A DNA stretch of 64,000 bases from Nitrospiraceae bacterium (GCA_050246315.1 JBFWWG010000001.1:448001-512000); one strand, 5' to 3'; shown: positions 44,692 to 64,000, counted from the stretch's first letter. Notes: a model not told the origin generated them from the sequence alone. A program made the numbers and translations.

Positions 44692-44725
44692 GACGGGCGG
44701 ACGAGGGCGGGTGGATCGGGGAATC

Positions 44726-45307: not shown

Positions 45308-45341
45308 TCGGGCGCCATTCTAGGAAAGGCGTTCCAGCCTG

Positions 45342-46295: not shown

Positions 46296-46332
46296 GGTCG
46301 ATTCCTCCATAAGAGTGGCGATGCCTTGCGAT

Positions 46333-46764: not shown

Positions 46765-47009
46765 TGATCTGCCTCACCGAATCATGGTCTGCCGGGAGAA
46801 CAGTAGGGCCGTCTGGAGTGACGACCTGTGGACGGGTGCGGCGCGTTCAACGCAATCAGTCTAGTCACGCCTCGCACCACGGTCAAGGAGCGACAGTTAA
46901 TCGGTATCAGGAGGCGGCCGATCACGACAAGAGATAGCATAGTAAGATAAGCAGCGGCCGAGCCGCAGTCGTTGATCGATGGCGGGGGCGGTGCTATAGT
47001 CCGCGCTCC

Positions 47010-48275: not shown

Positions 48276-48278
48276 CGC

Positions 48279-48683
48279 GTGGCAGGCACCCACACGATCG
48301 ACATTCGCATCTATTATGAGGATACCGATTGCGGCGGAGTAGTGTATTATGCGAACTACCTCAAATATTTCGAACGCGCGCGGACACACTATCTTGAATC
48401 GAGAGGGATCTCCGTTACCGAACTATTGCAGCAGGGCACCCAGTTCGTGGTGGTCCATGCCGAGCTGGATTGTCGAGCGCCGGCTCGGTATGGGGAGACC
48501 TTGACGATCGAAACGCGCCTTGCTGAGGTGACGAGGGCCTCACTGACCTTTGCACACGTGATCCGGGAGCGAACGAGCCAACGGGTGGTAGTCGAGGGAT
48601 CGGCGAAGCTGGCGGCGACCGATCTGGCCGGCAAGGTCAAACGGATCGACCAGTCGCTTGTCGACCAACTTCACGACGCATAG
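48279..48683 (+). CDS. YbgC/FadM-family acyl-CoA thioesterase
   Basis: IYYEDTDCGGVVYYANYLKYFERAR. Confidence 0.92.
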   Translation: MAGTHTIDIRIYYEDTDCGGVVYYANYLKYFERARTHYLESRGISVTELLQQGTQFVVVHAELDCRAPARYGETLTIETRLAEVTRASLTFAHVIRERTSQRVVVEGSAKLAATDLAGKVKRIDQSLVDQLHDA

Positions 48684-48696
48684 AAAGCATGCCCCA

Positions 48697-48810
48697 ATGG
48701 AAAAACTAGGAACGTGGTTGGCCATCGGAGGCGTCGCGATCGGATTTGTCGTGCTGGCTTGGTTGTTGTTTTCCGAGGGACCGAAAGACAAGAAGGACAA
48801 AAAGCCGTAG
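48697..48810 (+). CDS. 37-aa single-TM peptide
   Basis: MEKLGTWLAIGGVAIGFVVLAWLLFSEGPKDKKDKKP; below the ORF-track cut-off. Confidence 0.55.
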   Translation: MEKLGTWLAIGGVAIGFVVLAWLLFSEGPKDKKDKKP

Positions 48811-49016
48811 TGCTCGACCCTCGGTGTGGTCCTCTTCCGCCTTGTGTATCCTAAGTACCACCTCGAAGGGTAGAGACCTCCTCTCAAGTCCCCGTTGCAT
48901 GCACCGCTCGTTCTACATCTCGACTCCGGCGGGTCCGGTTGGGATCATCTTCATCGCTGATGGTTCCGGCCTGCCGTTCCTGTTATGAACGATCAAAGTC
49001 TTCAACTGGAGAAACA

Positions 49017-50579
49017 GTGGTCGTGAGACTGTCTCCCTGGAACGCCAAGCTGCGCGATTGGCAGGCCCGTGCCGTGGCGGCGGTCTTGACCCATCCCAGC
49101 CCGGACTTTCTTGCGACCGCGACTCCCGCGGCGGGAAAAACGCGGTTCGCGTTGCGGATCGCCCATCAATATCTGGCCGACCGAGTGGCCGGCCGCGTGC
49201 TGGTCATCTGTCCCACAAATCACCTTCGCGGACAATGGGCGGCCGCGGCCGGCTCGGTGGGGATTCAACTGGACCCGGCGCTGACGAACGAGCAGTCCTG
49301 TGAAGCCCGCGATTACCATGGGGCAGTCGTCACCTATCAACAGGTCTGCCTTGCGCCGGCTGTATTTCAGCGGGCCTGCCGGAACCGGCGCACGCTGCTC
49401 ATCTTCGACGAGTTGCACCATGCGGGCGACGGCAAGGACTGGGGCAGGGCGTTGCGGGAGGCGTTCAGCGAGGCGGCGTTTCGCCTTGCGCTCTCGGGGA
49501 CGCCCTTTCGCTCTGATAACAATCCAATCCCTTATGTCCGGTACGATCACGGAGAAAGCCAGGCCGATTTCACCTATGGCTATGCCGAAGCCATTCGCGA
49601 GGGCGTCTGCCGGCCCATTCTGTTTCCGAGCTATGAGGGGGAACTGAGCTGGTTGTCGGACGGGCGCGAACATCGGGCCACGTTTGAAGACGGATTGACG
49701 GCCGAACGGCGGAGGGAGCGGCTCAAAACGGCGCTGCTACAGGAGACCTGGCTGGGGCCGGTGATTGCCGACGCCCATACCGAATTGACCCGACTCCGCA
49801 AACAGGAGCAGCCGGACGCGGGCGGCCTGATCGTCGCCATGAACCAGGAGCATGCCAGGCAGGTGGCCGAATTGGTCGGCCGCGTCACAGGAAGCCGTGC
49901 CCATGTGGCCGTCTCCGACGATCCGGCCGCCTCCAAGACGATCGAGACGTTCGCGCAACATCCCAAACAGCAGTGGTTGGTCGCCGTGAACATGGTGAGC
50001 GAAGGCGTGGACATTCCACGACTGCGTGTCGGCGTCTACGCGTCGAACGTGTTGACGGAGATGTATTTCCGCCAAGTCGTCGGGCGGTTCGTCCGGATGC
50101 AGGAGGGCTTTCCCCGACCGCAACGGGCTTGGCTCTACCTCCCGAAGGACGCGACGCTCGTGCACTATGCCAAACGGATCAAGGCCGAGCGGGACCATGT
50201 CTTGGAAGAGGTGATGCCGTCCGTGCAGCGGACGTTGTTCGGCACCGCCGGCACCTCGCTGAAGGAATATGTGCCGTTGAACGCCGTAGCCCGAATGGAT
50301 GCCTTGATCGGTGAGGACGAGGCCGACCAGGAGGGAGGCAAGGGCGCACCGGCACCGGCCGTTTCATTGCATGACCGAAAGGCCGAGCTGCGGGAGGTGC
50401 ACCGAACCTTGGTCGGAACGGTTGCGAGGAAGACCGGTCTCGATCATCGCCGGCTCAATGCGGAGCTCATCAAACGCACCGGCGGACGTGTCGATCAGGC
50501 GACGATTCGACAACTGGAGCGTCGGATCGCCTTGCTGGAACGGTGGCGAGAATCCGGATTTGACGGAACGCGGACGTGA
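49017..50579 (+). CDS. Superfamily II DExH helicase (ResIII-like)
   Basis: LRDWQ Q-motif, TPAAGKT, DELHH, LSGTPFRSD, MVSEGVDIPRL, QVVGRFVR. Confidence 0.9.
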   Translation: MVVRLSPWNAKLRDWQARAVAAVLTHPSPDFLATATPAAGKTRFALRIAHQYLADRVAGRVLVICPTNHLRGQWAAAAGSVGIQLDPALTNEQSCEARDYHGAVVTYQQVCLAPAVFQRACRNRRTLLIFDELHHAGDGKDWGRALREAFSEAAFRLALSGTPFRSDNNPIPYVRYDHGESQADFTYGYAEAIREGVCRPILFPSYEGELSWLSDGREHRATFEDGLTAERRRERLKTALLQETWLGPVIADAHTELTRLRKQEQPDAGGLIVAMNQEHARQVAELVGRVTGSRAHVAVSDDPAASKTIETFAQHPKQQWLVAVNMVSEGVDIPRLRVGVYASNVLTEMYFRQVVGRFVRMQEGFPRPQRAWLYLPKDATLVHYAKRIKAERDHVLEEVMPSVQRTLFGTAGTSLKEYVPLNAVARMDALIGEDEADQEGGKGAPAPAVSLHDRKAELREVHRTLVGTVARKTGLDHRRLNAELIKRTGGRVDQATIRQLERRIALLERWRESGFDGTRT

Positions 50580-50586
50580 CACCCCT

Positions 50587-50624
50587 CGCCGGACGCGGCG
50601 GGCGACCCCGCTCGGCGTCCGGCG
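50587..50624. terminator. GC-rich hairpin between convergent genes
   Basis: CGCCGGACGC...GCGTCCGGCG stem with inner GCGGG/CCCGC. Confidence 0.6.
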
Positions 50625-50636
50625 GTATCCCCTTCC

Positions 50637-51077
50637 TCATGACCGCTCGAGGGGACGGCGATAAAACTCCAGCGGCGGGGCCGTTCCACTCTCGAGCAAG
50701 AGACGGTCCCCCTCCAGACGATAGTGTGTTGAAGTTTCGAATGCGCGGATAAACGCCGCCTCGAACTCCATCCGCCCAGGTTCGCAAGCCATGCGCGTGG
50801 TCATGCCGGGAGACACGGTCACGTGACCGTCACGCGGTCCGAACGTGACGCGGCTGTTGTACCGGTTGCAGCCGGCATGGCCGGAGGCTCTGCCCTCCTG
50901 GAATTCGAGGATCACGGGCTCGCCATTGTCGCCATGCGGGACCGTGCGATCGCCCCAGCGAACTAACTCCCACCGATTGGACTCGATGAGTCGAGGCGCG
51001 TTCTCCGTCGAAGGAGCGGAGACACACCCCAGCAACATGACCGTGACAGCGATCGGGAAGAGATTGGCGAGGCGCAT
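50637..51077 (-). CDS. META-domain (HslJ-like) lipoprotein
   Basis: Lipobox LLGC; SGHAGCNRY, TRMAC. Confidence 0.9.
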   Translation of the reverse strand: MRLANLFPIAVTVMLLGCVSAPSTENAPRLIESNRWELVRWGDRTVPHGDNGEPVILEFQEGRASGHAGCNRYNSRVTFGPRDGHVTVSPGMTTRMACEPGRMEFEAAFIRAFETSTHYRLEGDRLLLESGTAPPLEFYRRPLERS

Positions 51078-51604
51078 CTACAATGGTTGAGCGAGTGGCG
51101 ATTGTTGACTGATGCTTTCGGCTGAATCGGGCATGGAGTCATCCGCACGAGACGACAGGCTGTGTCGGTATCCTGCCAAGATTGGCAGGCTATGCCAAGC
51201 GATTTCTTGGCGGCATTGCAATGGGACCGATTCCGGACCTGAGCATGGGTGTCGCCTGCCAACCGCGTACATCGCGCAAACGCAAGTCGCCCCCTTTGCA
51301 TGGCGGGTCTGAAAAGGTATACTCATCGCGGCCGAGGCAAATGCAGCGCTTCGCCTTCCTCTGATCAATAGCTATATAGAGGATGAGCGGACCTCCGAAT
51401 CTTCGGTGGAACCATTTTCGGGTTGCTGCGCGGATTCGCTCCCGCGAGGTGAGCCTGAGTCTCGACCAGATTCTTGGATACGTTCCCACCCTGAGCCGCT
51501 AGACGGCCCTCCGATCGTTGTGTTCTCCCGAATGAGTATCCTCACGCTGCGTCTGTCGGCGTGAGGGCGATCCGCACGTGGAGTCTCCAGCGTGATAAAG
51601 CTGC

Positions 51605-52960
51605 GTGTGTCCCGTGGCGTCTCCCATATGGATCAGGACATGGTCTGGGCCGGAATGGGGAATGGCGAGTTGTGATCCTTGCGCAGGGAACCACGAGCGT
51701 CTGGTTCGTGTCCGGAGGGGAGCGGTGACCTGCCGATTTCCCATCTCGGCTCGGTTTCTGATTCGTTCGGCCGTTCTCGGCGTAACGGTCCTGGCCGCCT
51801 GGCTATCTCTTCAGGCGGCGACGCTTCCATTTGCCTGGTTCTGGCTCAGCTGCGGGATGGCCATGCTTCTGTTCGGATTCACCGCCCGGCGGACGGCCGC
51901 CAAGGCGGTCTGGGTCAACCTCTGTGCGGCCATGGTGTCCCTCGCATTGGCCGAGGTGTATTTTTGGAACACGAAGGTGGTGAAGACCAACACCTATTGC
52001 TGCGACGACCGCTATTTCGTCCGCGACGATCTCTTAGGAGTGGTGCCTCGGAAGAGCTTCGCCGCGACCCATGTGAAGACCGCGAATGCGCTTCCCCTTT
52101 ACAAGGTCACCTACACCATTGACGCCAATAGATTGCGCATTCCGCCCCCCTACGATGAACGAAACAGCCGCGGGTCCATCCTCTTTTTCGGCTGCTCCTA
52201 CACCATGGGCGATGGAGTGGAAGATACCGAGACTCTGCCCTATCTGACCGGCCTTCTGACACAGGGCCGCTACGCCGTTTACAATTTCGGGTTTCATGGC
52301 TATAGCGCGCAACAGATGTTGGCCAACCTGGAGTCAGGGCGAGTCCAGAATATCGTGACCGTGGCGCCTCAGCACATCATCTACCAGACCATCCCGTATC
52401 ACATGGAACGGGTAGCAGGCCTCATGACCTGGTTCCCGCATGCGCCGCGATACCGTCACTCGGACGGCGGCCGCGTCGTCCCCGACGGGCACCTCGACAC
52501 GGTGGAGGACGAAACCCGCTATTCACGGATCGAGCGGTTCTGGCGGAGTCAGGGATCCATCGGGCAGGCCATCTCCACGACCATGCGAAAGTCCTACATC
52601 TACGACAAATTGGTGCCTCCATTACGAAGCCTGACCGGCGAGGACGTCCGTCTCTATCTGGACGTGGTCTCGCAGGCGCGAGCGGCGGCGGCGAGGCAAT
52701 ATCCCCAGAGCGAGTTCCATATTATTCTGTGGGACAACATGTTCGTTAAACACGATTATCTCCAATTCCTTCCTCAAGTGCTGGAAGGGTTCCGGAAGGA
52801 GCGCGTGCGGGTCCACCTCGTGTCCGAGATCATTCCGGACTATGACGCCAGTGCGCCGAATACGAAGTATGAAATCCATGCGCACGATAGCCATCCGAAT
52901 CCCTTCACGTATCGTCTCTTGGCGACCTATATCGCCAAGAACATTCTTCACGCGGATTGA
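51605..52960 (+). CDS. Membrane-anchored SGNH/GDSL-like hydrolase
   Basis: N-terminal TMs; FFGCSYTMGDGV, YNFGFHGYS, DSHPN; start uncertain. Confidence 0.78.
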   Translation: MCPVASPIWIRTWSGPEWGMASCDPCAGNHERLVRVRRGAVTCRFPISARFLIRSAVLGVTVLAAWLSLQAATLPFAWFWLSCGMAMLLFGFTARRTAAKAVWVNLCAAMVSLALAEVYFWNTKVVKTNTYCCDDRYFVRDDLLGVVPRKSFAATHVKTANALPLYKVTYTIDANRLRIPPPYDERNSRGSILFFGCSYTMGDGVEDTETLPYLTGLLTQGRYAVYNFGFHGYSAQQMLANLESGRVQNIVTVAPQHIIYQTIPYHMERVAGLMTWFPHAPRYRHSDGGRVVPDGHLDTVEDETRYSRIERFWRSQGSIGQAISTTMRKSYIYDKLVPPLRSLTGEDVRLYLDVVSQARAAAARQYPQSEFHIILWDNMFVKHDYLQFLPQVLEGFRKERVRVHLVSEIIPDYDASAPNTKYEIHAHDSHPNPFTYRLLATYIAKNILHAD

Positions 52961-53003
52961 GGCAAGGGGTGGGTCTTCAGCACCACAAAGGGGTCACACA
53001 AAG

Positions 53004-53471
53004 GGGTCAGGTCTTGCAATCATGCACGAGCTTGCTCGATCTGCTTCAGCCGGCGTGGGTCGCTAGCTTTGCGCCGACGGGGTTGAGCACCACAGATCGG
53101 CACAACTCCGACAGGTGCGCATCCTTTTCCACAAGAATGGCTCTGAATCGATCTTCAAACAGATGGCCAACCCGACCATGCCGGCGATTGAAGGCCTGAA
53201 CGTATACGCCGTTCAACTGGCGCATGCCCTGCGAGAGCGTCGGTCGTGGTATATCGACGAGCAGATGGTCGCGATTGTCCATCAGGCAGTAGGCCTGATA
53301 CAGCCGGCCATACCGGTCGATCATCTGGGCGAGGGTGGCGAGAAACCGCGCATGATCTTTGTCATCGCGCACGATCGGCTGGTGGGAGTTTCCGCGTCCA
53401 GTCAGTTGGTAGACGGCGTGGGGAAACTCCAGACGAGCGGGTGAGCAATGTATGATTGCAAGACCTGACCC
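53004..53471 (-). mobile_element. RAYT (TnpA-REP)-derived mini-element A1 with perfect 20-bp TIRs
   Basis: GGGTCAGGTCTTGCAATCAT (53004-53023) and ATGATTGCAAGACCTGACCC (53452-53471); internal ORF AYCLMDNRDHLL..FNRRHGRVGHLF..VVLNPV. Confidence 0.85.
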
Positions 53472-53496
53472 TCCATTTGCGCTCCATTTGATTTGA

Positions 53497-53543
53497 CGAA
53501 GGAGCGTCGCTTTTTGCTGTCCGAGTTGATGCTGTTGTTCGGG
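53497..53543 (-). repeat. Partial attC (R'' side only)
   Basis: GTCCGAGTTGATGCTGTTGTTCGGG just downstream of the nitroreductase gene; other arm replaced by element A1. Confidence 0.45.
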
Positions 53544-53550
53544 TTCTGAT

Positions 53551-54567
53551 TCAAACCAGCACCGACTCTACCGGACGCCGTAGTGATCTCGGCATTTCCT
53601 TTCCTCTGCCGAAGCGCACGACGAGATCGAGCCTCCGGTCACCCAACCTCAGGGCTTTGGCGAATTCGAGGCGAAGGCGGGATTCCTCGACAGGTTGGTT
53701 CACAAAAGCATTCCGGATTCCCAACGCCGTGGCTTGCAGCGCGAAGCGCTCATAACAGCGGCCTGCTTCGACCCAGTGAACCTTGTCGTTGACGTTCGAT
53801 ACGAACACGGCGATTCCCGCCGAACTGCGGATTTGGCGGGCATACTTGGCATTTTCAGGTTTCACGCGAAAAAGCGAACGGAACAGTAGCCTCCCCAGCC
53901 AGCGTGGAGTCGGAGGGCTTCCGGTCGATCGAGCCGTCAACCCATCACCGGTTCGGATCGCCTCGCCATCGCTGAAGCGAATCCAACTCTCTAACTCGCT
54001 CACAAAAGCCGGGTTGTCGATCTGCATGGTGTTGCCCTGAACCACATATTCGAGAACCTTCTCCATTGCTTCCCGCTCAGTCAGCAGGATGACCACAACG
54101 CCGTTCCCGGTTCCGGCTGTTTCGAGCAGCCGCAGTTCTTCCGTGGCCAGTGGTCTACCGTCAAAGCTGGTTCGTGTGCATTGTCGATAGGGAATTGCTT
54201 TGAACAGAGGCGATTCTTCCGCTTTCCATCGTTCCAGCATGACCGTGATTACTCCGCCGGAAGCAGGACTGAAATCCACATTCCCCATGAAGCCGGATGC
54301 CCTTGCCGCCTGGACAAGATTCTCGGCGGCGCATCCCAGCGACACGAAGAGATGATGGTCATCCGGATCGACCACCGGGGTACGTCGGGACAGATCCGGC
54401 AGGATTGCAATGGAACGATTCTCCAGCCGAAACCGCCAACATTGTGTGTTGTGCCCGGACGGGGCCAACGTGGCGTAGCGGACGATCTCTTTCATCTGCG
54501 CCGCCTCATCGGACGGCACGCCTTCCGAGTGGCGCCAGATGCTTTTCACCGCCTCAGCGTAATTCAT
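53551..54567 (-). CDS. Acg-family FMN-binding nitroreductase-like protein (cassette)
   Basis: LAPSGHNTQCW, SLGCAAENL, NQPVE, RSLRRP. Confidence 0.88.
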   Translation of the reverse strand: MNYAEAVKSIWRHSEGVPSDEAAQMKEIVRYATLAPSGHNTQCWRFRLENRSIAILPDLSRRTPVVDPDDHHLFVSLGCAAENLVQAARASGFMGNVDFSPASGGVITVMLERWKAEESPLFKAIPYRQCTRTSFDGRPLATEELRLLETAGTGNGVVVILLTEREAMEKVLEYVVQGNTMQIDNPAFVSELESWIRFSDGEAIRTGDGLTARSTGSPPTPRWLGRLLFRSLFRVKPENAKYARQIRSSAGIAVFVSNVNDKVHWVEAGRCYERFALQATALGIRNAFVNQPVEESRLRLEFAKALRLGDRRLDLVVRFGRGKEMPRSLRRPVESVLV

Positions 54568-54586
54568 CTCGCCGATTGCCTCGCAA

Positions 54587-54652
54587 CCCTAGCGCTCGAG
54601 ATCAGCCGACCCAGAACCGCGCAGGGCCGTCCGCTGCCCGCTCCTGTTGGAC
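54587..54652 (-). repeat. Degenerate attC site
   Basis: Plus strand CCCTAGC...ATCAGCCGAC...GTCCGCTG...GTTGGAC, 9 bp from the mrr stop. Confidence 0.5.
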
Positions 54653-54661
54653 GGCCCGCGG

Positions 54662-55573
54662 CTACTCCTCGCTGAAGTAGTCGGAATCAATCTTCTTCAC
54701 CTCATAGGAGCGAGCTAGGGACACGCCGACGTTGTGGTCAATCATGTGCTTTGCGAGCGCCGCGCCATCGATGAGCACGATCGTGCTGTCGATTCGAGAG
54801 GCGAACTCAATGGCGTCGGCGGAAAAGGACGACGTCGTAATGAATACTCCCTTGCGGGCCCGATGCCCCTGAAGCGCTCCAGCGAACTTCTGGATCTCGG
54901 GGCGTCCCACCGTAGAGTCCCAGCGCTTCGCCTGGATGTAAATCACATCGAGCCCCAGGCGATCCTCCTTGATGATCCCGTCGATCCCTCCGTCGCCACT
55001 CTTGCCGACAGCCTGCCCGGCGTCGCGAAGCGTTCCTCCGTAACCCATCCGAACAAGAAGCTCGACAACGAGGCGCTCGAAGAATGATGGGGATGCGCCT
55101 TTCACTTGGTCGAGGAGTTCACCTTCGAGATCGAGTCGGAGGCGGCCGTATGCCGCATCCAAGGCTTCCTCAGGTGTGGCGTCGCTAGAGACGATGATCG
55201 GTGTTGGCGCTTCATCCGGACGCTCATGTCGCAGCTCTCGGAAAGCCACGAACTCCGGAAACTGCTCCAGATACTTGACATCGACGCGCTCGGGCTTCGA
55301 CGCGAGCACGGATTGCCCGCGATCGGTGATACGGAAGTAGCCCCGGCGAACAGACTCAATCAGACCAGCCTTCTTGAGGTAAGTCCGCGCCCAACCCGCT
55401 CGGTTCCGAATCACGGTCTGCTGACCGCTGCCGAGCAACTGCTGGCGCTCCTCGGACGACAGACTGAACTCGTCGGCTAACGAGTCCACAACTTCCCCGA
55501 TGTTGTGCTCCTTGCCATCCCTGAGGAATCGAAGGAGAGGCAGCATCACCGTTTGGTAGTCGGGTATCGCCAT
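54662..55573 (-). CDS. mrr: Mrr type IV restriction endonuclease (cassette)
   Basis: MAIPDYQTVMLPLL, NRAGWARTYLKKAGL, DGGIDG, IYIQAKRW. Confidence 0.95.
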   Translation of the reverse strand: MAIPDYQTVMLPLLRFLRDGKEHNIGEVVDSLADEFSLSSEERQQLLGSGQQTVIRNRAGWARTYLKKAGLIESVRRGYFRITDRGQSVLASKPERVDVKYLEQFPEFVAFRELRHERPDEAPTPIIVSSDATPEEALDAAYGRLRLDLEGELLDQVKGASPSFFERLVVELLVRMGYGGTLRDAGQAVGKSGDGGIDGIIKEDRLGLDVIYIQAKRWDSTVGRPEIQKFAGALQGHRARKGVFITTSSFSADAIEFASRIDSTIVLIDGAALAKHMIDHNVGVSLARSYEVKKIDSDYFSEE

Positions 55574-55610
55574 TCAAGACTCTCAGCCATCCGTCTTTCG
55601 GTCCGTCCGC

Positions 55611-55649
55611 TCCCGTTCAGCGGCGCGCCGCTGAACGGGATGGTTGGGC
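55611..55649 (-). repeat. Degenerate attC collapsed to a perfect 30-bp palindrome
   Basis: TCCCGTTCAGCGGCG/CGCCGCTGAACGGGA plus GTTGGGC (55643-55649). Confidence 0.6.
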
Positions 55650-56405
55650 GTCTGGCTTCTGAAGCACCCAGATCATCACCGGACTTCGGCCTGCATCGAA
55701 CGGAGAGCGATCGTAGTTTCCATAGAGATCGAGGACATGGAATCCCGCGTCTCGCGCCATGGTCTCGAAATGATCTCTTTCGACGAACTCGAACTCCATT
55801 GGCATCAGGTGCTTCGAGCGCAGCCGCCCGTCACTATCGAAAAACTCAAAAACTTGAAGGCGCGTCACCAGAGGCCGTCCGCCCTGTTCGAAGCCGGAGA
55901 CGACGAGGCTCCCGTCCGGTGTCGCAAAGCGTCCGACGAGGCGCAGCGTTCCATCCACTTGGGCTCGGCGCACGGCGGGATTGTGCATCGTGCAGATGAA
56001 GCGGCCGCCTGGCGCCAAACATGCGAACACGGCCGAAAGTGCCTGGCGCTGACGCGGCTCGCCTATGATTTCCATGAACGATTGGAATGGCAGCAGCGCG
56101 AGCTGATAGCGTGTGTGAAGCTCGAGTTGGCAGACATCGGCACACAGTACTTCTGCGCTGAGACCACGATCCCTCAGTTTACGAGACAGAACGTCGAGCA
56201 TTCCGCGGGATCCATCGATGCAGGTCAATTGCGCTCCCGCCTGGATCAGCGCGAGTGAGAGCCGACCTGTGCCTGCGGTCAATTCCAAGATCGGCCCCTC
56301 GACCTTCGCCGTTTCCTCCAGAAAGAACGGGATGTCGTAGTCCGCGGCCACGTACAGGTCATAGATCTCCGCGACGCTGTCGTAGTCGACCGGAGTACGG
56401 CTCAT
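55617..56405 (-). CDS. Class I SAM-dependent methyltransferase (cassette)
   Basis: ILELTAGTGR, IDGSRGML, LAPGGRF. Confidence 0.9.
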   Translation of the reverse strand: MSRTPVDYDSVAEIYDLYVAADYDIPFFLEETAKVEGPILELTAGTGRLSLALIQAGAQLTCIDGSRGMLDVLSRKLRDRGLSAEVLCADVCQLELHTRYQLALLPFQSFMEIIGEPRQRQALSAVFACLAPGGRFICTMHNPAVRRAQVDGTLRLVGRFATPDGSLVVSGFEQGGRPLVTRLQVFEFFDSDGRLRSKHLMPMEFEFVERDHFETMARDAGFHVLDLYGNYDRSPFDAGRSPVMIWVLQKPDAQPSRSAARR

Positions 56406-56507
56406 AGCTGCCTCATAAGACGCCCAACGCCTGAATGAAGCCGCGCCGCGTAGCGGCGTCGGGTTGAATGAATGAACCAGAATAGTGAACCAGTACGGGT
56501 CACAGAA

Positions 56508-57158
56508 TTAGGGGGCAGAGTACTCTTGCCTGGTGGGATGTAGCTCGTTTGGTCGACCCCCTGTTTCCCCTATCAAGCTCCTTCCGACTTTCCTGCCGAT
56601 GGCCTCCCTGATACGTCTTACCTCCCACCACTCGCCCTGCTGCGTCGCTGTCCGGATGCGATCCCATTCATGGTCAGGCAATGAGTCCTCAAGCCGGCTG
56701 GCATAGGCGCTCGCTCGGGCTTGTGGGTTGTCTCCCAACGTCACGTACCAGGAGTCCTCATCAAGAAGAGGATCTGGTCGTCCCAGGGCCCGTCCGGTCA
56801 TGGTCGGCATTGAAATACCGGACATAGCGTTGCCCAACGCTCTGCATGAAACGACTCAGATCGCCTTCGTGTCCCGGTTCCATCAAGAGATGAACATGGT
56901 TGGTCATGAGCACGGATGCATGGAGCCGTACCCCGCATTGCTGTTTGGCCACGAGCAGACACTCGCCAAAGACCTGATAGGCCTTCGGAGCATGAAAGAC
57001 AGGTTGCCGATTATTGCCGCGCTGGATGACGTGATGTGGGGACGCCGGTAGGCTAAGTCGAGGCGGACGCGCCATGATTGGCAAACCCCGCACACCAGTG
57101 AGGTCGGGACCCTACGTCACGGCTGGCGGGACTGTCAATGCAATAGTTCTCTGACCCC
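56508..57158 (-). pseudogene. Second RAYT type (B), internally deleted; ORF start 57075
   Basis: MARPPRL..HHVIQRGNNRQPVF, VLMTNHVHLL, YFN...RTG then a jump to the C-terminal part. Imperfect IR GGGGCAGAGTACT / AGTTCTCTGACCCC. Confidence 0.82.
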
Positions 57159-57174
57159 TATTCCGGTTCCAATC

Positions 57175-57312
57175 TTTGTCATCGCGCACGATCCACTGGT
57201 GGGAGTCTCCGCGTCCAGTCAGATGGTGGACGGCGTGGGGAAACTCCAGACGAGTGGGCGAGCCATGCTGGAACTCGACTCCAACGCGATGTGTGACTGC
57301 AAGACCTGACCC
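57175..57312 (-). mobile_element. Truncated copy A3 of RAYT mini-element (one TIR)
   Basis: Near-identical to 59845-59982; ends TGACTGCAAGACCTGACCC. Confidence 0.8.
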
Positions 57313-57375
57313 TCAATTCCCACCATTCCTCAATTCGGTGGACCCTCCATTCGGTGAATGAATTGTTAGCCGAAC

Positions 57376-57828
57376 CTACGCTTTGACAGGGTAACGGCTG
57401 GAAATGGCGATACGGTTCCAAGTATTGATGACCACCGCAAGCCATTCGATGGCCGCGATTTCCTCTTTGGAAAGATGTGCGGAAGCTTGCTCGTAAACCG
57501 TATCTGGCAATTGACCATCTGAGATCAGCGTGATCGCCTCCACCAACTTCAGAGCGGCACGTTCTTTTTGCGTGAAGTAATCGGTCTCTCGCCATGCTGC
57601 GAGAACAGAGATGCGATCACTGCTCTCTCCACTGGCCAATGCATTCCGTGTATGCAGCCTGACGCAGAATGCACATTGGTTGATCTGAGAAGCCCGCAAG
57701 CGTAAGAGGTGAGAGAGGCCATCTGAGATACCTGCTTGGGTCGTTGCGTCAGACGCAAGCCGATCGAGTGCAACAACTGCCTGATATAGCGCAGGCGAGA
57801 ATGTTCCAAGATTGATTCTTTCAGTCAT
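57376..57828 (-). CDS. Carboxymuconolactone decarboxylase/AhpD family protein (cassette)
   Basis: LRASQINQCAFCVRLH, INTWNRI; lower GC than host genes. Confidence 0.92.
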   Translation of the reverse strand: MTERINLGTFSPALYQAVVALDRLASDATTQAGISDGLSHLLRLRASQINQCAFCVRLHTRNALASGESSDRISVLAAWRETDYFTQKERAALKLVEAITLISDGQLPDTVYEQASAHLSKEEIAAIEWLAVVINTWNRIAISSRYPVKA

Positions 57829-57847
57829 GCAGATTCCTCTGCTTGGA

Positions 57848-57980
57848 GGCTAACGCCGCCGTTCACCTGCGGCGGAGCGAGTGATCGCAGGGAGCGAGGC
57901 CGGCGTCAGGTGAACGCTAGAGCTCAGCGGCGGCAATGGAGCGCTGCGGAACTGCCGTCCGCTGCAGTGCCTTGTTCGGC
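57848..57980 (-). repeat. Two fused attC hairpins
   Basis: GGCTAAC..GTTCACCTG..CAGGTGAAC joined directly to GCTCAGCGG..CCGCTGCAGT..GTTCGGC. Confidence 0.75.
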
Positions 57981-58751
57981 TTATTTGTTTCCAACATAGA
58001 TTGATATTGGATAGGAAAAATGGATTTCGTTGCCAACCAAGTGAGCATCCATGCCCAATGAATTAGCATTGATATCGTTTTTGAATATGTCCCTTATCTT
58101 GTCATCATCCCCAGGTTTGGGAAACGATGCCTTGAGTTGCTTTTCAAGCTCCATCGGAACGGTATAGCGTCCACGCCGAAGATTGCTCAACCCGGATTGT
58201 CCAAGAAGTTGTTCCCATGACTCGTATGACAACGCTCGGGTATGAGATGGATCACGGAGCTTTTCCATGTGGTTGTAGGCCTCAGCTTTGTCGGCAGGCA
58301 ATGCTGCGTCTGCTATCAAAACAACGCCTTTCGGCTTACAGACTCTGATCATCTCCGTCAAGACCGCCTTCGGGTCGAGAAAGTGATGGAAGCTGTATCT
58401 GGTAACGACGATGGAGAATGAATCGGATGCGTAAGGCAATGGGGATGCGGTTCCGATGTCCCATGAGAGATTGGTCAAACCAAGTTCCTTTTGGCGATTC
58501 ATTGCCTGCTGGATCATCGTTTCGGTGAGATCAACTCCCGTAACATGCTGAGCCACCTTGGCAAACTCGCAAGCCACCAGCCCAGGTCCACATGCAACAT
58601 CGAGGACGAGGTCATCACCAGAAACGTTGCACATCTCGATGAGCATGTGGATTGAGTCCAAGTGCCCAGGCAACTTGGCGAAGGGAATTGCCTGCTGGGT
58701 AAATTGTTTCACAATCTCCGCGTCATGTTCCTGTTGACTTCTTGCGGTCAT
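57981..58751 (-). CDS. Class I SAM-dependent methyltransferase (cassette)
   Basis: VLDVACGPG, GVDLT, RYSFHHF, CKPKG; lower GC. Confidence 0.92.
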   Translation of the reverse strand: MTARSQQEHDAEIVKQFTQQAIPFAKLPGHLDSIHMLIEMCNVSGDDLVLDVACGPGLVACEFAKVAQHVTGVDLTETMIQQAMNRQKELGLTNLSWDIGTASPLPYASDSFSIVVTRYSFHHFLDPKAVLTEMIRVCKPKGVVLIADAALPADKAEAYNHMEKLRDPSHTRALSYESWEQLLGQSGLSNLRRGRYTVPMELEKQLKASFPKPGDDDKIRDIFKNDINANSLGMDAHLVGNEIHFSYPISIYVGNK

Positions 58752-58766
58752 TCTTTATCTCCTTCT

Positions 58767-58815
58767 GCCTAACGCGGGGCCTGAGCCGCGCCTGGAAGCG
58801 GGCCGACCGAGGAGG
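58767..58815 (-). repeat. Half attC (R' side)
   Basis: GCCTAACGCGGGGCCTGAGCCGCGCC...; complementary arm not found. Confidence 0.6.
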
Positions 58816-58862
58816 AGTCTCAGAAACGGTCATTGTTCAGAGGTTCCTTTGGCGGCGTTGTG

Positions 58863-59399
58863 TTACAAGGACTTCTTCATGCGCAAAAGCGGAACCGCGG
58901 TACCTCCGCGACCATCAATCATGTTTTCGTCAGCCACATACCCGCAAGCGCGATAGAGGGGTTCTCCGGCCAAGGTGGCGACTAATTCCATCCTGGTAAA
59001 ACCTTCTGCTTGCGCCGCCGCTTCGCAGAGCGCAATGATCAGCCGCCCCACGCCTTTGCGGGTGTGGTGGGGATGGGTATACATCGCGCGGATGCGTGCC
59101 GCGTCTTTCGTCGGGTCGAGGAGGGCCGCACTGCGTCCGAGGGTCTGATCTCCACCATACAGGGTGGCACGGCGGCTCCATCCGCCACAGCCGGCAAGTT
59201 GACCATCTACATCTACAATGAAATAGGTCTTATCATCAATCAGCTGAGTGTCCAAGCCCATAATGGCTCGACTCGAGGCAATCTGGCGTTCATCGAGAAA
59301 TGGCTTCTGCAATTCTGCGATTGCCGCGTTCATTAACAGTCTTAACGCGTTGAGGTCGTGGCGGCCGGCCAGCCTGTGGATCAATGTCGCTTGCGTCAT
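58863..59399 (-). CDS. GNAT-family N-acetyltransferase
   Basis: LAGCGGWS, RIRAMYTHP..RKGVG, LYRACGY; AAGGAGG RBS. Confidence 0.92.
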   Translation of the reverse strand: MTQATLIHRLAGRHDLNALRLLMNAAIAELQKPFLDERQIASSRAIMGLDTQLIDDKTYFIVDVDGQLAGCGGWSRRATLYGGDQTLGRSAALLDPTKDAARIRAMYTHPHHTRKGVGRLIIALCEAAAQAEGFTRMELVATLAGEPLYRACGYVADENMIDGRGGTAVPLLRMKKSL

Positions 59400-59490
59400 C
59401 ACTCCTCCTTGGGCCTGATTGAATTCAATCCTCGATGTCGGGGTCACGATTTCAGGGGTCAGATGTCAGGGTCACAGGGGTCAGATGTCA

Positions 59491-59982
59491 GGGTCAGGTC
59501 TTGCAATCATGCACGAGCTTGCTCGATCTGCTTCAGCCGGCGTGGGTCGCTAGCTTTGCACCGACGGGGTTGAGCACCACAGATCGGCACAACTCCGACA
59601 GGTGCGCATCTTTTTCCACGAGAATGGCTCTGAATCGATCTTCAAACAGATGGCCAACCCGACCATGCCGGCGATTGAAGGCCTGAACGTATACGCCGTT
59701 CAACTGGCGCATGCCCTGCGAGAGCGTCGGTCGTGGTATATCGACGAGCAGATGGTCGCGATTGTCCATCAGGCAGTAGGCCTGATACAGTCGGCCATAC
59801 CGGTCGATCATCTGAACGAGGGTGGTGAGAAACCGCGCACAATCGTTGTCATCGCGCACGAGCCACTGGTGGGCGTCTCCGCGTCCAGTCAGATGATGGA
59901 CGGCGTGGGGAAACTCCAGACGAGCGGGCGAGCCATGCCGGGACGCTACTTCAGCGCAATGTGTGATTGCAAGACCTGACCC
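59491..59982 (-). mobile_element. RAYT-derived mini-element A2 with 19-bp TIRs
   Basis: GGGTCAGGTCTTGCAATCA (59491-59509) and TGATTGCAAGACCTGACCC (59964-59982); near-identical to 53004-53471. Confidence 0.88.
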
Positions 59983-60494
59983 TTTGTCTGCTTTTCGAAC
60001 GACTCGGAAGCTGCTCGGAAGTCCAGCGCTTCCGAGTCGAGTCCGGGCATCGGCTGCTCGTCGAAGGTCTCGCTCCGCCCGAAACGGCGAAGCTCCTCGA
60101 CGAGCTCGCGATCCGCGCGGCGGTTGGTCGACCCCACGCGGACGTACACCCCGGCCTCGCGCCCCTCGCGCTTCAGGTGGTGCGGGCGCGCCGGACTCGG
60201 GTGTACCTGCACGGCGACGACCTGCGTACGCCGCCACGGGAGAATCTCGATCTCCGGCACGAGCCGCGGGGCCACGTGGTCGCTGACGAGGTTCGCCAGT
60301 CGCTCCTCCAGATCGAGCGGCTCGCGGATACCCCGCACATGGCCGGTTCTGTCTTCCACGCCCAGCAGCACGATCCCGCCGGCGGTGTTCGCTAAGGCGA
60401 CGACGGTCTTGAGCAGCCCGTCGGGGCCGGAGAGCTCGCGCTTGAACTCCAGCGTCTTGCCTTCCGGGCGCTTGAGCAGGTCGACCAAGTTCAT
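59946..60494 (-). pseudogene. AlbA_2/Schlafen-like domain protein, C-terminally truncated by element A2 (cassette)
   Basis: EGKTLEFKR, VVALANTAGG.VLLGVED, YVRVGSTNR, FDEQP; the ORF runs into the TIR. Confidence 0.82.
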
Positions 60495-60631
60495 CGCGCT
60501 AGGAAGCCTACTCGGAAGCTCCTGGGCACGTCAAGCTTCCGAGCTCAGAACCCCTCCGAGGCCGGCCGGCAAAGTACAGACGGGCGACGCGGTAACGTCC
60601 GTCCGCCCGGCACGGACCGTGGACGTGGGGC

Positions 60632-60704
60632 GTCTAACGGCTAGGTTTCAGCCACGGAGGCTCATGACCGGACCGGCCGCCGACGGCTGCAAACCCTGTT
60701 AGGC
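60632..60704 (-). repeat. Intact attC site (73 bp)
   Basis: Minus strand GCCTAAC-AGGGT-TTGCAGCC...GGCTGAA-ACCTAGCC-GTTAGAC with an extrahelical base in L''. Confidence 0.9.
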
Positions 60705-60736
60705 ACCGCGCGAATCAGTCGGTGCGCAAAGCCCAA

Positions 60737-61228
60737 CTACTTTCGGGCGCTGATGCCGTCCGCCGCGTCCATCTTTGGTTTGAGCTCGTTCAGATTCGCT
60801 CTCGCGAACGTGACATTAGCCGACGAGGCAATGATGTTTGGACCCGTCGGGGCCCCCTGCGCCACCATCAGCGCCATTCGCAGCGCCGGTACACCGACGA
60901 GGTAATCCTGTGCCGTCAGACCGTTCTCCTTGAGGATGGCCATTGCCTTTGGATCCTTCTCTACTTGCGCGCGACGTTCAGCGGGGGTCATCTTCATCGA
61001 CTTGGCCACCCGATCCTGAAAGTCCGGTAGGGACACCAGATATTTCGTCATCGCCTCCAGCGCTGAGATGAGCTGGTTGGCGCGCGGCAGCGTGAGCTTG
61101 TAGTTGAGGATTTCCTGGCGGCCGTCGGACGAATCTTTGGAGCCCTGCCCTCCAGCCACGTCGGTCGCGAGCCCAAGGGACATGACGACAAGGGACATGA
61201 CGACGAGAAGAACTACCGTGCGGAGCAT
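60737..61228 (-). CDS. Exported hypothetical protein (cassette)
   Basis: Signal peptide, AGGAGG RBS, flanked by attC sites with complementary R boxes. Confidence 0.8.
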   Translation of the reverse strand: MLRTVVLLVVMSLVVMSLGLATDVAGGQGSKDSSDGRQEILNYKLTLPRANQLISALEAMTKYLVSLPDFQDRVAKSMKMTPAERRAQVEKDPKAMAILKENGLTAQDYLVGVPALRMALMVAQGAPTGPNIIASSANVTFARANLNELKPKMDAADGISARK

Positions 61229-61323
61229 GAATCCCTCCTCTGCTTCTGGTCCTGCAATATACCGTCAACGCCGGGCGCCCGACTTCGAAGATCCGTAGCG
61301 ACGTTCCGGTTGCTCGTTCAGGT

Positions 61324-61382
61324 GCCTAACGTTGGAGCTAACCGGCCTGCCGCTGCGGGTCCGGTTGAGCGACTGGTTAGGC
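61324..61382 (-). repeat. Intact attC site (59 bp)
   Basis: Minus strand GCCTAAC-CAGTC-GCTCAACCGG...CCGGTTAGC-TCCAAC-GTTAGGC; extra C in L''. Confidence 0.92.
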
Positions 61383-61466
61383 GACCTCGTGTCACTCAGC
61401 GTTGTCTATTTCGTGACAACGCGTGCGCTCGCTGGCTGCAGGGTTGGCGAAGTTGCACAACCCATC

Positions 61467-64000
61467 TCAACCGCAACACTCGTCATCCCCCTTCATCTCG
61501 ACATCAATCGCGACTCGGCGAACACGAACACTCTTGACCTTGTCGCCGGGCAGGTCCAGACACTCGAGAAGCCGGCTGGCTCTGTCGCGGCACTGCGCCT
61601 TCTTGTCTTCAGGCGTCCGGTCGTTGAACGGCATCTCGAGGTCCGGATCGATTCGGTACGTCATGCCACCGATGACCGCGGTATCGGCGGTCGCGGTGAC
61701 GACGATGTCGCGCTCGGCTGCGGCCGCGACGTCAGCCTTCGTGAATGGCGCGCCCGCGTGGACATCAAAGGTGACGAGTCGTTGCTCGCGGGCCTTCAGG
61801 CGGGCGCCGCCTTCAGGCAAGGTCTGCAGACCGATCCGCCATCCTCGCCGCGCCAACATTGCAGGAAGAACGATAGACACCTCAATCTTCGCGGCTGTCC
61901 GACCAGGATTGCCCACCCAGAAGCCCTTGCCGTGGAGTCCCGCCATGAGACCCGCCAGTCCGCCGCCACCCGGAACGAGCGTGACATTCCGCTGACCGAC
62001 GTTGTTGTCGTTCGGCACGAGGCGCCAGTCCTCGACGACTTCGCCCGCCGTGAAGTTGTCGACGTTGCTTGGATCGCCTGTCGCCGACACGATCATCAGC
62101 ATGCAGTCATGCCCCCAGGCGTTCGTGACGGGGGTCCACTCGAACGGGCCGACGGTCTTCTCTTCGCCGTCGTTGGGCTGCAGCGTTCCGGCTGAGAGTT
62201 GGGCGGTCGTCATGGGTTGCAGGTCGTTGGGCCAGAGCACCCCTGCGGAAGGCTTGCAGTGGTAGCCCTTCACGACCACGTTGTTGGCGACGGACGTGCC
62301 ACGATTCTTGATCTTCACGTAGGCGTAGTTGGTGGCGGGGTCCCCTCCCGCATCGAGCAGCGCCGGTTCTTCGTGGCCCGCCAAGCCGTCGGGGTTACGG
62401 CGGTTCCAGATCGTCGTCGTTGCCCAATGGACCGGCAGATACTGGTACTCGCCCGCCCGGCTATCGTCGATGTAGACATCGACGCTGGGCGGTGCGCCGC
62501 CGTTGAGATTCTGTTTTTCAAATGCCCACGTGAGCACCTTGCCGTAGGCGCCTCCAAAAACCCCTTCCGAGGTCCAGTTGCCGGCGTCCGCGGTAATGAG
62601 CGCACTGAGAAAACCAGCGGCCGTCTTGGCGGTGCCGCCGACGCCCAAGCTGGCCGGGGTCATGCTGCCGACGGCTCGCAACAGCAGATAGGCCATGCAG
62701 CGCGCGGCGAATTCGCGCCGGACGACACTGTTCGAGTCGCCACCGATGGATCGGTAGGCACGGAACATCGTCGTGGAGAGAATTTGCTCGCTGAGGTAGC
62801 TGCCGAGATCGGCCGTGCCACCCCACGCCCACTTGCCGATGGTTGCCGTCCCGGAAGCGCCAGTCCCTCCGCCGCCCGTAATCGTCACCGTCGGCGCTCC
62901 GGTAAAGCCTGTGCCGTGGTAAGTGACCATCAGGAAGGTAACTGCCCCTCCGGAGACAAATGCGAGCGCTTTCGCACCCGAGCCGCCGCCTCCGCTGATG
63001 GTGACCGTGGGTGCACTTGCGTAGCCGGAGCCTCCACTCGTCAGAGTCAGGGCAATCACTCCGGAATCCGAAGGCGCCCGGTCTGATCGTCTTTCGAAGT
63101 AGGTGACGAAGGGCGCAAGGACAAAGCGGTCAATCGTGGCCGCATCGTGCCACTTGGACACGTAGTCATTGAGAATCATGGCGAAGCTGTCACCGGCGCT
63201 GTGCGCGAAACCGAAATTGGGGCCTCCGACATGGTCGTAGAGGATCCCGTGGCCGCCCAGTTCGTGAAGGACCACGCGCCAGTCTGTTGAAATGCCGATC
63301 GGGTTGGCGGTGTCGCCCTCGTCCGCAAGCGCATAGCACGTGTGATCGATGCCGTCGCCGTCGCCGATACAATGGCCATTGACGACGTTTCCAAGGGCGC
63401 GATGATCGACTTCAACCGGGAACGCCGTACCGTTGAAGTACCCCCCAGCGCCGGTCAGCGAAAACCCGAGGTCGGCCACCAGCCGAAAGAATCGGTCGGT
63501 GTGGTAATAGGCGTTGACTGCCGAAAACTGGTTGGTCCGCACATCCCAGATGTCGAAATCACTACCCGCAGGCCGTGTGGGGGCACCGACGGTCGGGGTC
63601 TCGATCTCGGTCAGGGTCGCCCAGGTGCCCTGAAGTGATTGGGTGGAGGGCGTTCCCGTGGGCGGATTCAGGTTGGCAAGCGGCTCGTTATCTCGATGCG
63701 GGTTCAGCACGGCGTTGCTTTTGTCCGCCGTATTGGTTGCCGTGCCACTGCTCGTGATCGGATCGTAGGTGAAGACCAGCCCGTTGATGCCCGAAGTGAG
63801 GGCCCGCAGATAGAGGATCGTGTTGGTCTCGACCTCAACGAGCACTCGCCAGTTCATCCGATGGCCGTTATATGGCAGGCGGAAAATGAGCTCGGCGACG
63901 AGGTACCAGCCTCCGTCGCGGATTGACTTGGGTACAGGCGGGAGCGGCAGCGTCGGCGGCGTGCCGCAGAGTGGCTGATCGACCGAATGCGGGTGGTCCT
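61467..64000 (-). CDS. Large M4/M36-like metallopeptidase (N-terminus outside window)
   Basis: Frame open to the window edge; [24 protein letters not shown]-terminal beta domain ending [10 protein letters not shown]. Confidence 0.72.

Follow-up and report, generated by a model that had tools for sequence, protein, structure and literature searches.

Decayed TIRtron derivatives in a Nitrospiraceae genome and their probable multiplication after gene inactivation

Introduction

A 64,000-nucleotide (nt) stretch of DNA from a Nitrospiraceae bacterium (GCA_050246315.1 JBFWWG010000001.1:448001-512000) contains three short related elements, A1, A2 and A3, each with the remnant of a Y1 transposase gene and a terminal inverted repeat (TIR) as its boundary. 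The whole stretch, G000:C1:448001-512000 in the notation used here, is called the window, and the positions of the A elements and of a neighbouring element, B, are counted from its start. G000 is the source genome, a 30-contig assembly, and G001 and G002 are sister species, the two closest genomes in the same genus. Comparison of the copies shows that A1-A3 are dead derivatives of TIRtrons, and they were quite probably copied after the death of the gene, presumably moved in trans by an intact relative. The features of the locus are as follows.

53004..53471, minus strand: A1, a mini-TIRtron of 468 bp with a decayed Y1 transposase remnant
53004..53022, plus strand: inverted repeat of A1 at the 3' end of the gene remnant
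53453..53471, minus strand: inverted repeat of A1 at the 5' end of the gene remnant
57170..57312, minus strand: A3, a third copy preserved over its 5' 143 nt, 91% identical to A2, with its own inverted repeat (1 mismatch)
59491..59982, minus strand: A2, a mini-TIRtron of 492 bp with perfect inverted repeats of 19-20 nt
56511..57158, minus strand: B, a further mini-TIRtron, from another Y1 subfamily, with inverted repeats GGGG(T/G)CAGAG(T/A)ACT(C/A)TTGC
53551..59447, minus strand: six small unrelated genes (nitroreductase, Mrr, methyltransferase, CMD, methyltransferase, GNAT)
59984..60494, minus strand: AlbA_2 (PF04326) gene, apparently truncated beside A2

Anatomy and boundaries of the A elements

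All three A elements have the 19-20 nt inverted repeat GGGTCAGGTCTTGCAATCA as their boundary, and the gene remnant is on the minus strand in each. The repeats of A2 are identical at 20/20 nt (59490-59509 with 59964-59983), and those of A1 extend over 23 nt at 96% identity (53004-53026 with 53449-53471). With up to two mismatches allowed, the 19-mer occurs five times in the window and not once in 100 dinucleotide-preserving shuffles. Together with the preceding G at 53003, the 3' tip of A1 reads GGGGTCAG (53003-53010) and fits the consensus GGGGWSAS, and the remaining four A tips, (A/T/G)GGGTCAG, match it at 7/8 positions. When A2 is folded as single-stranded DNA, its repeats pair as a 20-bp stem in both the minimum free energy and the centroid structures (z -4.76).

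A repeat search of 50000-64000 found a direct repeat of 300 nt between A1 and A2 (52986-53285 versus 59473-59772, 97%). The right ends constitute a three-copy family of 144 nt (53353, 57170, 59840), in which A2 is 91% and A1 67% identical, ungapped, to A3 as the reference. In MAFFT alignments of the copies with their flanks, the repeat tips mark the limit of similarity at either end of A1 and A2 and at the outer end of A3. A1 and A2 share 448 identical positions, with 20 mismatches and one 24-nt gap, and A2 and A3 are identical at 130/143 positions. A preliminary description made from the sequence alone had given the sizes of A1 and A2 and the 19-20-bp TIRs of the three copies, which stand as described, and had set beforehand the alignment of copies and flanks as a check; identity does not pass the TIRs into the flanks.

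A3 is interrupted internally, 8-12 nt from B, and the remainder of A3 is absent beyond B. The AlbA_2 gene beside A2 matches an 83%-identical homologue of 276 aa only up to residue 166, which is four codons before the repeat-encoded tail, and the homologue continues for 110 residues. The last 12 codons of the AlbA_2 open reading frame (ORF) are read from the A2 inverted repeat, and the remainder of the gene is absent beyond A2. Since the rest of A3 is missing past B and the rest of the AlbA_2 gene is missing past A2, both A2 and A3 are tied to one-sided loss of neighbouring DNA.

Decay of the transposase gene

On the minus strand A2 reads ...SPARLEFPHAVHHLTGRGDAHQWLVRDDNDCARFL...AYCLMDNRDHLLVDIP...ELCRSVVLNPVGAKLATHAG up to a stop codon, and the translations of both A1 and A2 contain CLMDNRDHLLV and CRSVVLNPVGAKLATHAG, the latter ending at a stop. 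NRDHL stands in the place of the HUH motif and RSVVLNP in that of the catalytic-Tyr motif. The A1 ORF matches Pfam Y1_Tnp (PF01797) with E 2.1e-5 and 25.1 bits, above the cut-off of 23 bits, and the read-through of A2 matches slightly below it (E 1.3e-4, 22.5 bits). In tblastn comparisons the A copies are 53-59% identical to full-length relatives, and about three quarters of the catalytic domain remains in the mini copies as a pseudogene.

The lesions were located in an alignment of seven sequences: A1, A2, A3, a mini copy on contig C5, a 90-nt stretch on contig C6 (C6r) that corresponds, over its first ~80 nt, to the 5' end of the A element, and two full-length relatives, C4a (C4:264666-265623) and C1d (C1:650952 onward). 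One nucleotide directly after the ATG (ATGGCTCGCCCGCT-CGTCTGGAG) is gone in A1, A2 and A3 and is kept in C6r, C4a and the C5 copy. A further 24-nt loss in A1 includes the ATG, and A2 keeps the ATG out of frame. The codons CAC TAC CAT have become CGC GAC CAT (H-Y-H to R-D-H) in A1 and A2, and HYH is kept in the C5 copy. The catalytic Tyr codon is TCT (Ser) in A1, A2 and the C5 copy, and the same three copies, when aligned with C1d and C4a, have lost ~430 nt out of frame, together with the C-terminal helix-turn-helix (HTH) region. The NRDHL and RSVVLNP readings and the missing C-terminus reported in the preliminary description are borne out by the translations and the alignment; the frameshift it had noticed in A2 and A3 extends to A1, as seen against C6r, C4a and the C5 copy, and the loss of roughly 24 bp with the ATG of A1 comes to 24 nt.

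The deletion junction, ...CACGCCGGCT/GAAGCAGATCGAG, matches C1d on both sides of the gap, with the downstream frame shifted. Read as ...CACGCCGGCT/GAAGCAGATCGAGCAAGCTCGTGCATGATTGCAAGACC, its upstream part corresponds to ...CATCCGCGGCT of C1d and its downstream part to the last C1d codons, ...CGCCGGCTGAGGCAAGTCGAG...GTGTGATTGCAAGACC. Because the junction matches on both sides, the deletion lies between two short direct repeats (...CGGCT), and the ATHAG end before the stop codon results from the altered frame.

A homologue search of a 5.8-billion-protein collection found 620 matches, of which 120 were listed and 8 sequences inspected. Among the matches listed, the closest intact-looking protein, P0003, is 73% identical, lies on a metagenome contig of 1114 nt, and reads NHYHLL and CRYVVLNPVRAKL (CRYVVLNP). 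The NRDHL/RSVV combination was present only in P0001 and P0002, which are the A1 and A2 ORFs themselves, among the 8 sequences inspected. Since P0003 and the full-length copies of the genome keep both motifs, the RDH and Ser states of A1 and A2 are derived losses. The 17 substitutions between A1 and A2 in the 5' part cause 10 amino-acid changes by hand count; the pattern is as expected of a pseudogene and suggests no selection on the ORF. A conserved family of catalytically inactive proteins was also considered and rejected, with NRDHL/RSVV confined to this organism's own A1 and A2 among the 8 matches inspected.

Relatives in the source genome and in sister species

A whole-genome tblastn search of G000 found four intact full-length relatives (C4:264712, C4:302808, C1:569901 and C20:16774) of 305-328 codons stop to stop. 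They carry NH[YV]HLL and RY[VL]xLNP, and lie between inverted repeats that start with GGGGTCA and have the tips GGGGTCAG or GGGGTCAT; these repeats agree with the A repeat only in the first 13 nt. Three relatives were scanned for domains and all have Y1_Tnp, with HTH_38/HTH_23/HTH_28 in C4a, Bac_DnaA_C in C4b and weak HTH matches in the third. Two intact TIRtrons have a tandemly doubled right end, at C1:568896 and 568957 (period 61) and at C4:265590 and 265623 (period 33), where two terminal repeats stand side by side.

The genome-wide copy count proposed in the preliminary description added two members to the group. A fourth mini copy of 492 bp is on another contig (C5:134177-134668) and is 76% identical over 322 aligned nt; besides the deletion and the Ser codon it has A-type repeats with one mismatch each, the ATHAG end and an in-frame stop, and is older than A1-A3. 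A 5' fragment of the A element, 83% identical, is at C6:90271.

The full-length C1d has an A-type repeat, with 2 mismatches in the left repeat and five tip bases missing from the right one, and its gene is a pseudogene in G000 owing to a stop at codon 5 and a frameshift. Its counterparts are open in G001 (297 codons) and G002 (304 codons), with HUH, Tyr and HTH_23, and the G002 copy belongs to the same locus as C1d because the two share the 3' flank. An intact element with the same TIR, for which the preliminary description had suggested a search, therefore exists in both sister species and in G000 is represented by the pseudogene C1d. G001 has a C4a-like full-length TIRtron at two loci; between their tips the two copies agree at 98.6% over 926 nt, and their flanks are unrelated.

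The 24-25 nt GGGTCAGGTCTTGCAATCACACAT is conserved at 96-100% in 14/40 relatives searched, including members of another family of the order, and often at contig ends; one matching genome, G009, is unpublished. Bare pairs of A-type repeats, 14-40 nt apart and REPIN-like in their minimal look, were seen in sequencing run X9 (joints 53021 to 59960) and in G011 (L024 about 48-95).

Element B

B is unrelated to A, adjoins A3 and is single-copy in G000. It keeps NHVHLL, has a frameshift after RTG and, judged by eye, has lost the segment expected to hold the catalytic Tyr. It is 97% identical to G002:C3:168793-169452, at another locus, where the match ends at the tips and the flanks differ (shared span 56503-57162). 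An attC-like repeat lies on opposite sides of B in G000 and G002, and the boundaries of B stay at the tips. The G002-like arrangement of B also occurs in run X20.

Comparison with known systems

TIRtron/TIRYT: TIRtrons are Y1/HUH genes, normally of ~280-320 aa with a C-terminal HTH, between GGGGWSAS-tipped inverted repeats. Transposase genes between inverted repeats, many with GGGGWSAS, have been described under the names TIRtron and TIRYT, with HUH and Tyr conserved in all TIRYTs and with families of solitary, dimeric or grouped repeats in some genomes (Di Nocera, De Gregorio and Rocco 2013, PMC3733652). Subclass 2.1 of the TnpA(REP)-like Y1 proteins has a C-terminal extension that resembles Bac_DnaA_C, HTH_23 or HTH_28, and 20/26 TIRYTs belong to it (Quentin et al. 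2018, PMC6006769). The present elements are similar in that a Y1/HUH gene is flanked by terminal inverted repeats instead of REP hairpins, the tip fits GGGGWSAS, the full-length relatives have a C-terminal HTH (HTH_23/HTH_28/Bac_DnaA_C), and solitary and clustered repeats occur within one genome. In contrast, A1-A3 are without HUH, Tyr, frame and HTH (the last removed by the ~430-bp deletion), and form a small family of mini copies with identical architecture. They retain the Y1 domain, the terminal inverted repeats and the tip, and thus are decayed, internally deleted derivatives of TIRtron/TIRYT (subclass 2.1) and not functional members. In the main text of PMC3733652, the words 'truncated' and 'pseudogene' occur 0 times, and the single 'non-autonomous' refers to REPs and not to TIRtron derivatives.

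REPIN/RAYT: In the REPIN/RAYT system (Bertels and Rainey, bioRxiv 10.1101/119735), as in the present elements, a Y1 transposase relative goes with short inverted sequences that are thought to be moved in trans, and as single-stranded DNA the two repeats can form a long hairpin. RAYTs typically occur as single copies with vertical inheritance, whereas here several full-length elements are paralogous, a sister genome holds duplicates, and deletion derivatives still carry the gene. No REP-type palindrome or GTAG tag was seen at the A ends, which are inverted repeats of 19-24 nt tipped GGGTCA. For the label RAYT in the preliminary description the correct name is TIRYT, and no REPs are involved; the subgroup it mentioned with GGGG(A/T)(C/G)A-tipped inverted repeats is TIRYT/TIRtron, with its GGGGWSAS (PMC3733652, PMC6006769).

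IS200/IS605: This family, which includes IS608 and ISDra2, transposes as single-stranded DNA. The PF01797 catalytic fold is shared, and no target-site duplication was seen here. The ends of IS200/IS605 are, however, asymmetric with subterminal hairpins and without terminal inverted repeats, and its enzymes have no C-terminal HTH. Ends of this type were not found in the A copies: by eye, the 5' ends of A1 and A2 could form only a 5-bp GCAAT/ATTGC hairpin, which A3 does not keep.

MITEs: The A copies resemble miniature inverted-repeat transposable elements (MITEs) in their retained terminal inverted repeats, lost coding capacity and presumed reliance on a related enzyme. Their ends are kept, the gene is dead, the flanks differ between copies, and a full-length element with the same repeat is present in G001 and G002. 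However, they measure 468-494 bp, compared with 70-300 bp for typical bacterial MITEs (PMC3733652), and their copy number is very low.

Integron cassettes: Identity between the copies ends at the tips, and no attC is common to them (attC sites judged by eye and by folding), unlike what would be expected of cassettes.

Multiplication after inactivation

That A1-A3 multiplied after inactivation is indicated by lesions common to copies with differing flanks, and also by the diverged copy on another contig, which has the same deletion. This part of the earlier proposal of copying after inactivation with mobilisation in trans is supported by the comparison; the trans step is the part that we infer. 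Considered together, the G001 duplicates, the occurrence of B in two species and the lesions and flanks of the A copies speak for copying of the unit between the repeats, without the need for a working gene in cis.

In the proposed history, an ancestral copy would have lost its ~430 bp out of frame between the short direct repeats, after which neither the catalytic Tyr nor the HUH motif nor the reading frame would have survived in its lineage. The unit between the inverted repeats would still have been copied to new sites, three of them here and an older one on C5. Since no active enzyme can come from the A element itself, it was presumably moved by an intact TIRYT that acted on the repeats common to both. 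The likeliest source of this enzyme would be the lineage with the same repeat (C1:650952), before its decay in G000, and this lineage is intact in both sister species; one of the four resident intact paralogues, sharing only the first 13 nt of the repeats, would be a less likely source. Y1/HUH transposases such as IS608 and TnpA(REP) use single-stranded DNA as substrate and need structured ends. By analogy with IS200/IS605 and REPIN/RAYT, the enzyme would be expected to act on single-stranded DNA, in which the two repeats of one strand form the 20-bp panhandle. Later events would include gene conversion between A1 and A2, truncation of A3 by a rearrangement beside B, and placement of A2 at the break of the AlbA_2 gene.

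Several observations weigh against this history. The comparison of occupied and empty sites that the preliminary description had proposed gave no pair, neither in the same-genus genomes (three searched with 51600-61300, G001 and G002 with 44001-64000) nor in the four sequencing runs whose Logan contigs were set against a 9-kb stretch of the locus (X20, X3, X9 and X16); this stretch is present almost in full in 19 runs from 6 studies, and many of these runs may represent the source sample. No contig of the four runs joins across A1, A2 or B, and two 'skip' joints with sides of 21-30 nt are not trusted. No target-site duplication or conserved target was seen at the copies, and the 30-contig G000 assembly holds no intact enzyme with exactly the A repeat. 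There are only 3-4 copies, three of them within 7 kb and in one orientation, so that recombination could have been involved. The mismatches between A1 and A2 are distributed unevenly, with 17/20 in columns 1-192 and 3 in columns 193-492 of an alignment of 492 columns, and therefore the 3' 300 nt of the two copies, 6.5 kb apart, have probably been homogenised by gene conversion, through which RDH, Ser and perhaps the deletion itself may have passed from one to the other. In run X20 the differences of a mini copy at 59581-59582 would, as read here, give TAC (Tyr) versus TCT in the A and C5 copies; because of this apparent Tyr, the order of the lesions is not a simple tree, and the history includes recombination with other copies. 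Gene conversion nevertheless explains neither the frameshift in the diverged part of A1, A2 and A3 nor the deletion in the unlinked C5 copy.

TIRYT/TIRtron elements are known from sequence surveys only, and the passages on them in PMC3733652 and PMC6006769 contain no demonstration of mobility; tests of TIRYT mobility are put forward as future work in the former and further analyses are called necessary in the latter. The dead copies with their shared lesions and tip-to-tip bounds constitute comparative evidence that the repeat-bounded unit moves and that the repeats suffice in cis, and the 98.6% duplicates in G001 and the 97% dead element shared across species point the same way. For a direct test, the 492-bp A2 provides a defined substrate and the relatives provide candidate enzymes. 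As decayed derivatives, the A copies represent a described but unstudied element type, an ordinary family with modestly new behaviour.

Alternative explanations

Recombination, either as integron-type duplication and shuffling of cassettes or as ectopic exchange in a variable island, could have produced the copies, with the inverted repeats as mere relics; this is unlikely, and it is the strongest of the alternatives. It would suit three copies in one orientation within 7 kb among small unrelated genes of the same strand, an integron integrase (TIGR02249) 7.2 kb from A2 with attC-like cores between the genes, the surroundings of the C5 copy, which has an attC-like repeat of 88% similarity at a distance of 1.1 kb and an integrase-like fragment at 1.8 kb, and the evident gene conversion of A1 and A2. 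However, identity ends at the tips and not at GTTRRRY/RYYYAAC cores, the copies have no attC in common, and the attC-like repeat of B switches sides between G000 and G002 while the boundaries of B are unchanged. Moreover, the full-length duplicates of G001 are bounded tip to tip with no such context noticed there, the attC calls were made by eye, and the intergenic folds are mostly no better than those of shuffles. Less probable still is that full-length active elements were inserted independently and that lesions which arose once were then copied by gene conversion, so that the dead element was never mobilised. The 300 nt that include RDH, Ser and the junction differ at 3 positions, compared with 17 in the 5' 192 columns, as such conversion would predict. 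Yet the frameshift common to A1, A2 and A3 is in the diverged 5' part, and the deletion and Ser are also in the unlinked C5 copy at 76% identity. A 367-nt contig of run X20, 91% identical to 59515-59881, also spans the deletion junction, and several conversions across contigs would be required.

Some deletion derivatives of other transposons restrain the transposase, and the short ORFs might likewise still be used, for instance as a truncated dead DNA-binding protein that restrains the transposase of the family. An ORF of 108 aa is open in both A1 and A2 and its lesion-bearing part is nearly identical, but no in-frame ATG is present and all three copies have the frameshift; translation in frame could begin only at an internal GTG in A1 and, in A2, at the start of a 234-aa frame that opens outside the element. 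Most of the substitutions are non-synonymous, the C5 copy has its in-frame stop, and the motifs were not found beyond this organism among the 8 matches inspected, all of which makes continued use very improbable. An assembly artefact, in which one element was placed two or three times, is hardly credible. Repeats often mislead short-read assemblies and the Logan contigs break within A1 and A2, but the copies have 20 differences, the 24-nt indel and unique flanks. Logan contigs of X3, X9 and X16, from three studies and possibly including the source sample, reproduce the locus; a single X3 contig covers 53274-59520, and the segments common to A1 and A2 have ~1.5-1.6x the flank depth in X3 and X9. 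An artefact, which the preliminary description had named as a threat to its proposal, is unlikely on this evidence. Multiplication of the dead elements after inactivation therefore remains the preferred reading.

Junction duplications at element ends

At many element ends, the last 5-13 nt of the flank and the first tip bases are repeated in tandem. The arrays beside A1 and A2 are as follows.

52966..53002, no strand: array outside the A1 3' end, flank and tip (CACAAAGGGGTCA) in tandem, period 13, 100%
53472..53493, no strand: junction duplication outside the A1 5' end (TCCATTTGCGC / TCCATTTGATT), period 11, 91%
59440..59490, no strand: tip-copy array outside the A2 3' end (including GGGGTCAGATGTCA, GGGTCACA, GGGGTCAGATGTCA), period 22

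The A2 3' end is accompanied by three additional GGGTC[AG] hexamers within 45 nt. Further junction duplications were seen at window positions 57313-57360 and, in G000, at C16:19024, C12:117015, C6:187836 and C2:276955. In G001 longer ones have periods of 47, 74 and 659 nt. Because the spacers differ between copies, the arrays arise at the site after insertion. To our knowledge, a tandem flank-tip duplication has not been described as a footprint.

For counting, a duplication was defined as abutting the tip, with a period of 8-20 and at least 85% identity, and an extra tip as GGGTC[AG] within 45-48 nt outside. A 13-mer repeat scan with up to 2 mismatches gave 224 matches and was too noisy for counting ends. 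The frequencies obtained are the following.

Objective end list (19-mer, up to 3 mismatches, own genome): duplication 8/23, extra GGGTC[AG] 7/23
Hand-made end list, possibly biased by eye: duplication 15/30, extra GGGTC[AG] 10/30
Loci of relatives (one end from G009): duplication 2/18, extra GGGTC[AG] 4/18
Random genome positions: duplication 0.49%, extra GGGTC[AG] 2.4%

Partners for solitary repeats were sought within 2.5 kb of 22 ends and none was found; three partner-like matches (3 mismatches in 13 nt) look like chance.

A wider reading, which is speculative and on balance doubtful, is that the TIRtrons here are active and spread replicatively. The enzyme would nick at or near the GGGTCA tip, and cycles of nicking, extension and rejoining would leave the junction duplications. 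Dead mini copies and bare pairs would be moved in trans as panhandles, and the family would insert by preference into integron cassette arrays, in which the DNA is often single-stranded and rich in hairpins. If this were true, the loci would serve as a natural record of where an unstudied class of HUH transposases cleaves and how it chooses its targets. The junction duplications and the proximity of integron integrases are leads and not results.

Genomic context

Cores similar to GTTRRRY are present 15-25 nt upstream of several start codons in the run of six genes, and 53551-59447 is probably an integron-type cassette array, an assignment that is provisional. The region beyond ~52141 has no counterpart in G001 and G002, mobile elements excepted; the G002 contig ends there and G001 diverges at ~51204. 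The integron integrase at C1:515191-516135 (~67191-68135 in window numbering, outside the window) matches TIGR02249 with 462.7 bits at a cut-off of 265. An IS3-like ORF adjoins it, and the array-like minus-strand run 53551-60494 is on its 3' side.

A strict scan for attC sites by pairing and folding over C1:499500-517500 gave one weak candidate, outside the locus. Of eight intergenic stretches that were folded, only 55570-55660 surpassed its shuffles; it forms a perfect 13-bp hairpin. A blastn-short search with the repeat at 56416-56480 found one good relative, C5:132989-133039, which is 88% identical to window 56423-56473 and 1.1 kb from the C5 mini copy.

A second integron integrase is at C8:84849-85871 (L046 6849-7871; TIGR02249, 462.4 bits), with an attC of textbook appearance, judged by eye, at L046 ~5146-5080. 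At the far end of this array, four solitary C20-type TIRtron repeats (GGGGTC[AG]GGC[CA]TGAGTATTGA) each follow GTAAC:

L046 3373, 4137, 4458 and 4530 (G000:C8:81373-82530): solitary C20-type repeats beside a HicA/HicB-like pair (named by eye)

A motif common to several solitary repeats, ...CCGCA(T/C)TATTCATGACG..., lies ~90-150 nt beyond them and contains the small palindrome TGACG-N3-CGTCA:

C2:276955, C1:245384, C1:235358 and C4:12843; L046 ~3290 and ~4370; L044 5427-5470: solitary repeats with the shared motif

The CCGCA(T/C)TATTCATGACG motif could represent a short repeat family of its own, one end of which is TIR-like. At C12:108880 and C12:114973, TIR-like ends are each followed by a gene pair of ribbon-helix-helix and PIN-like type, recognised by eye, and one of the two pairs is decayed.

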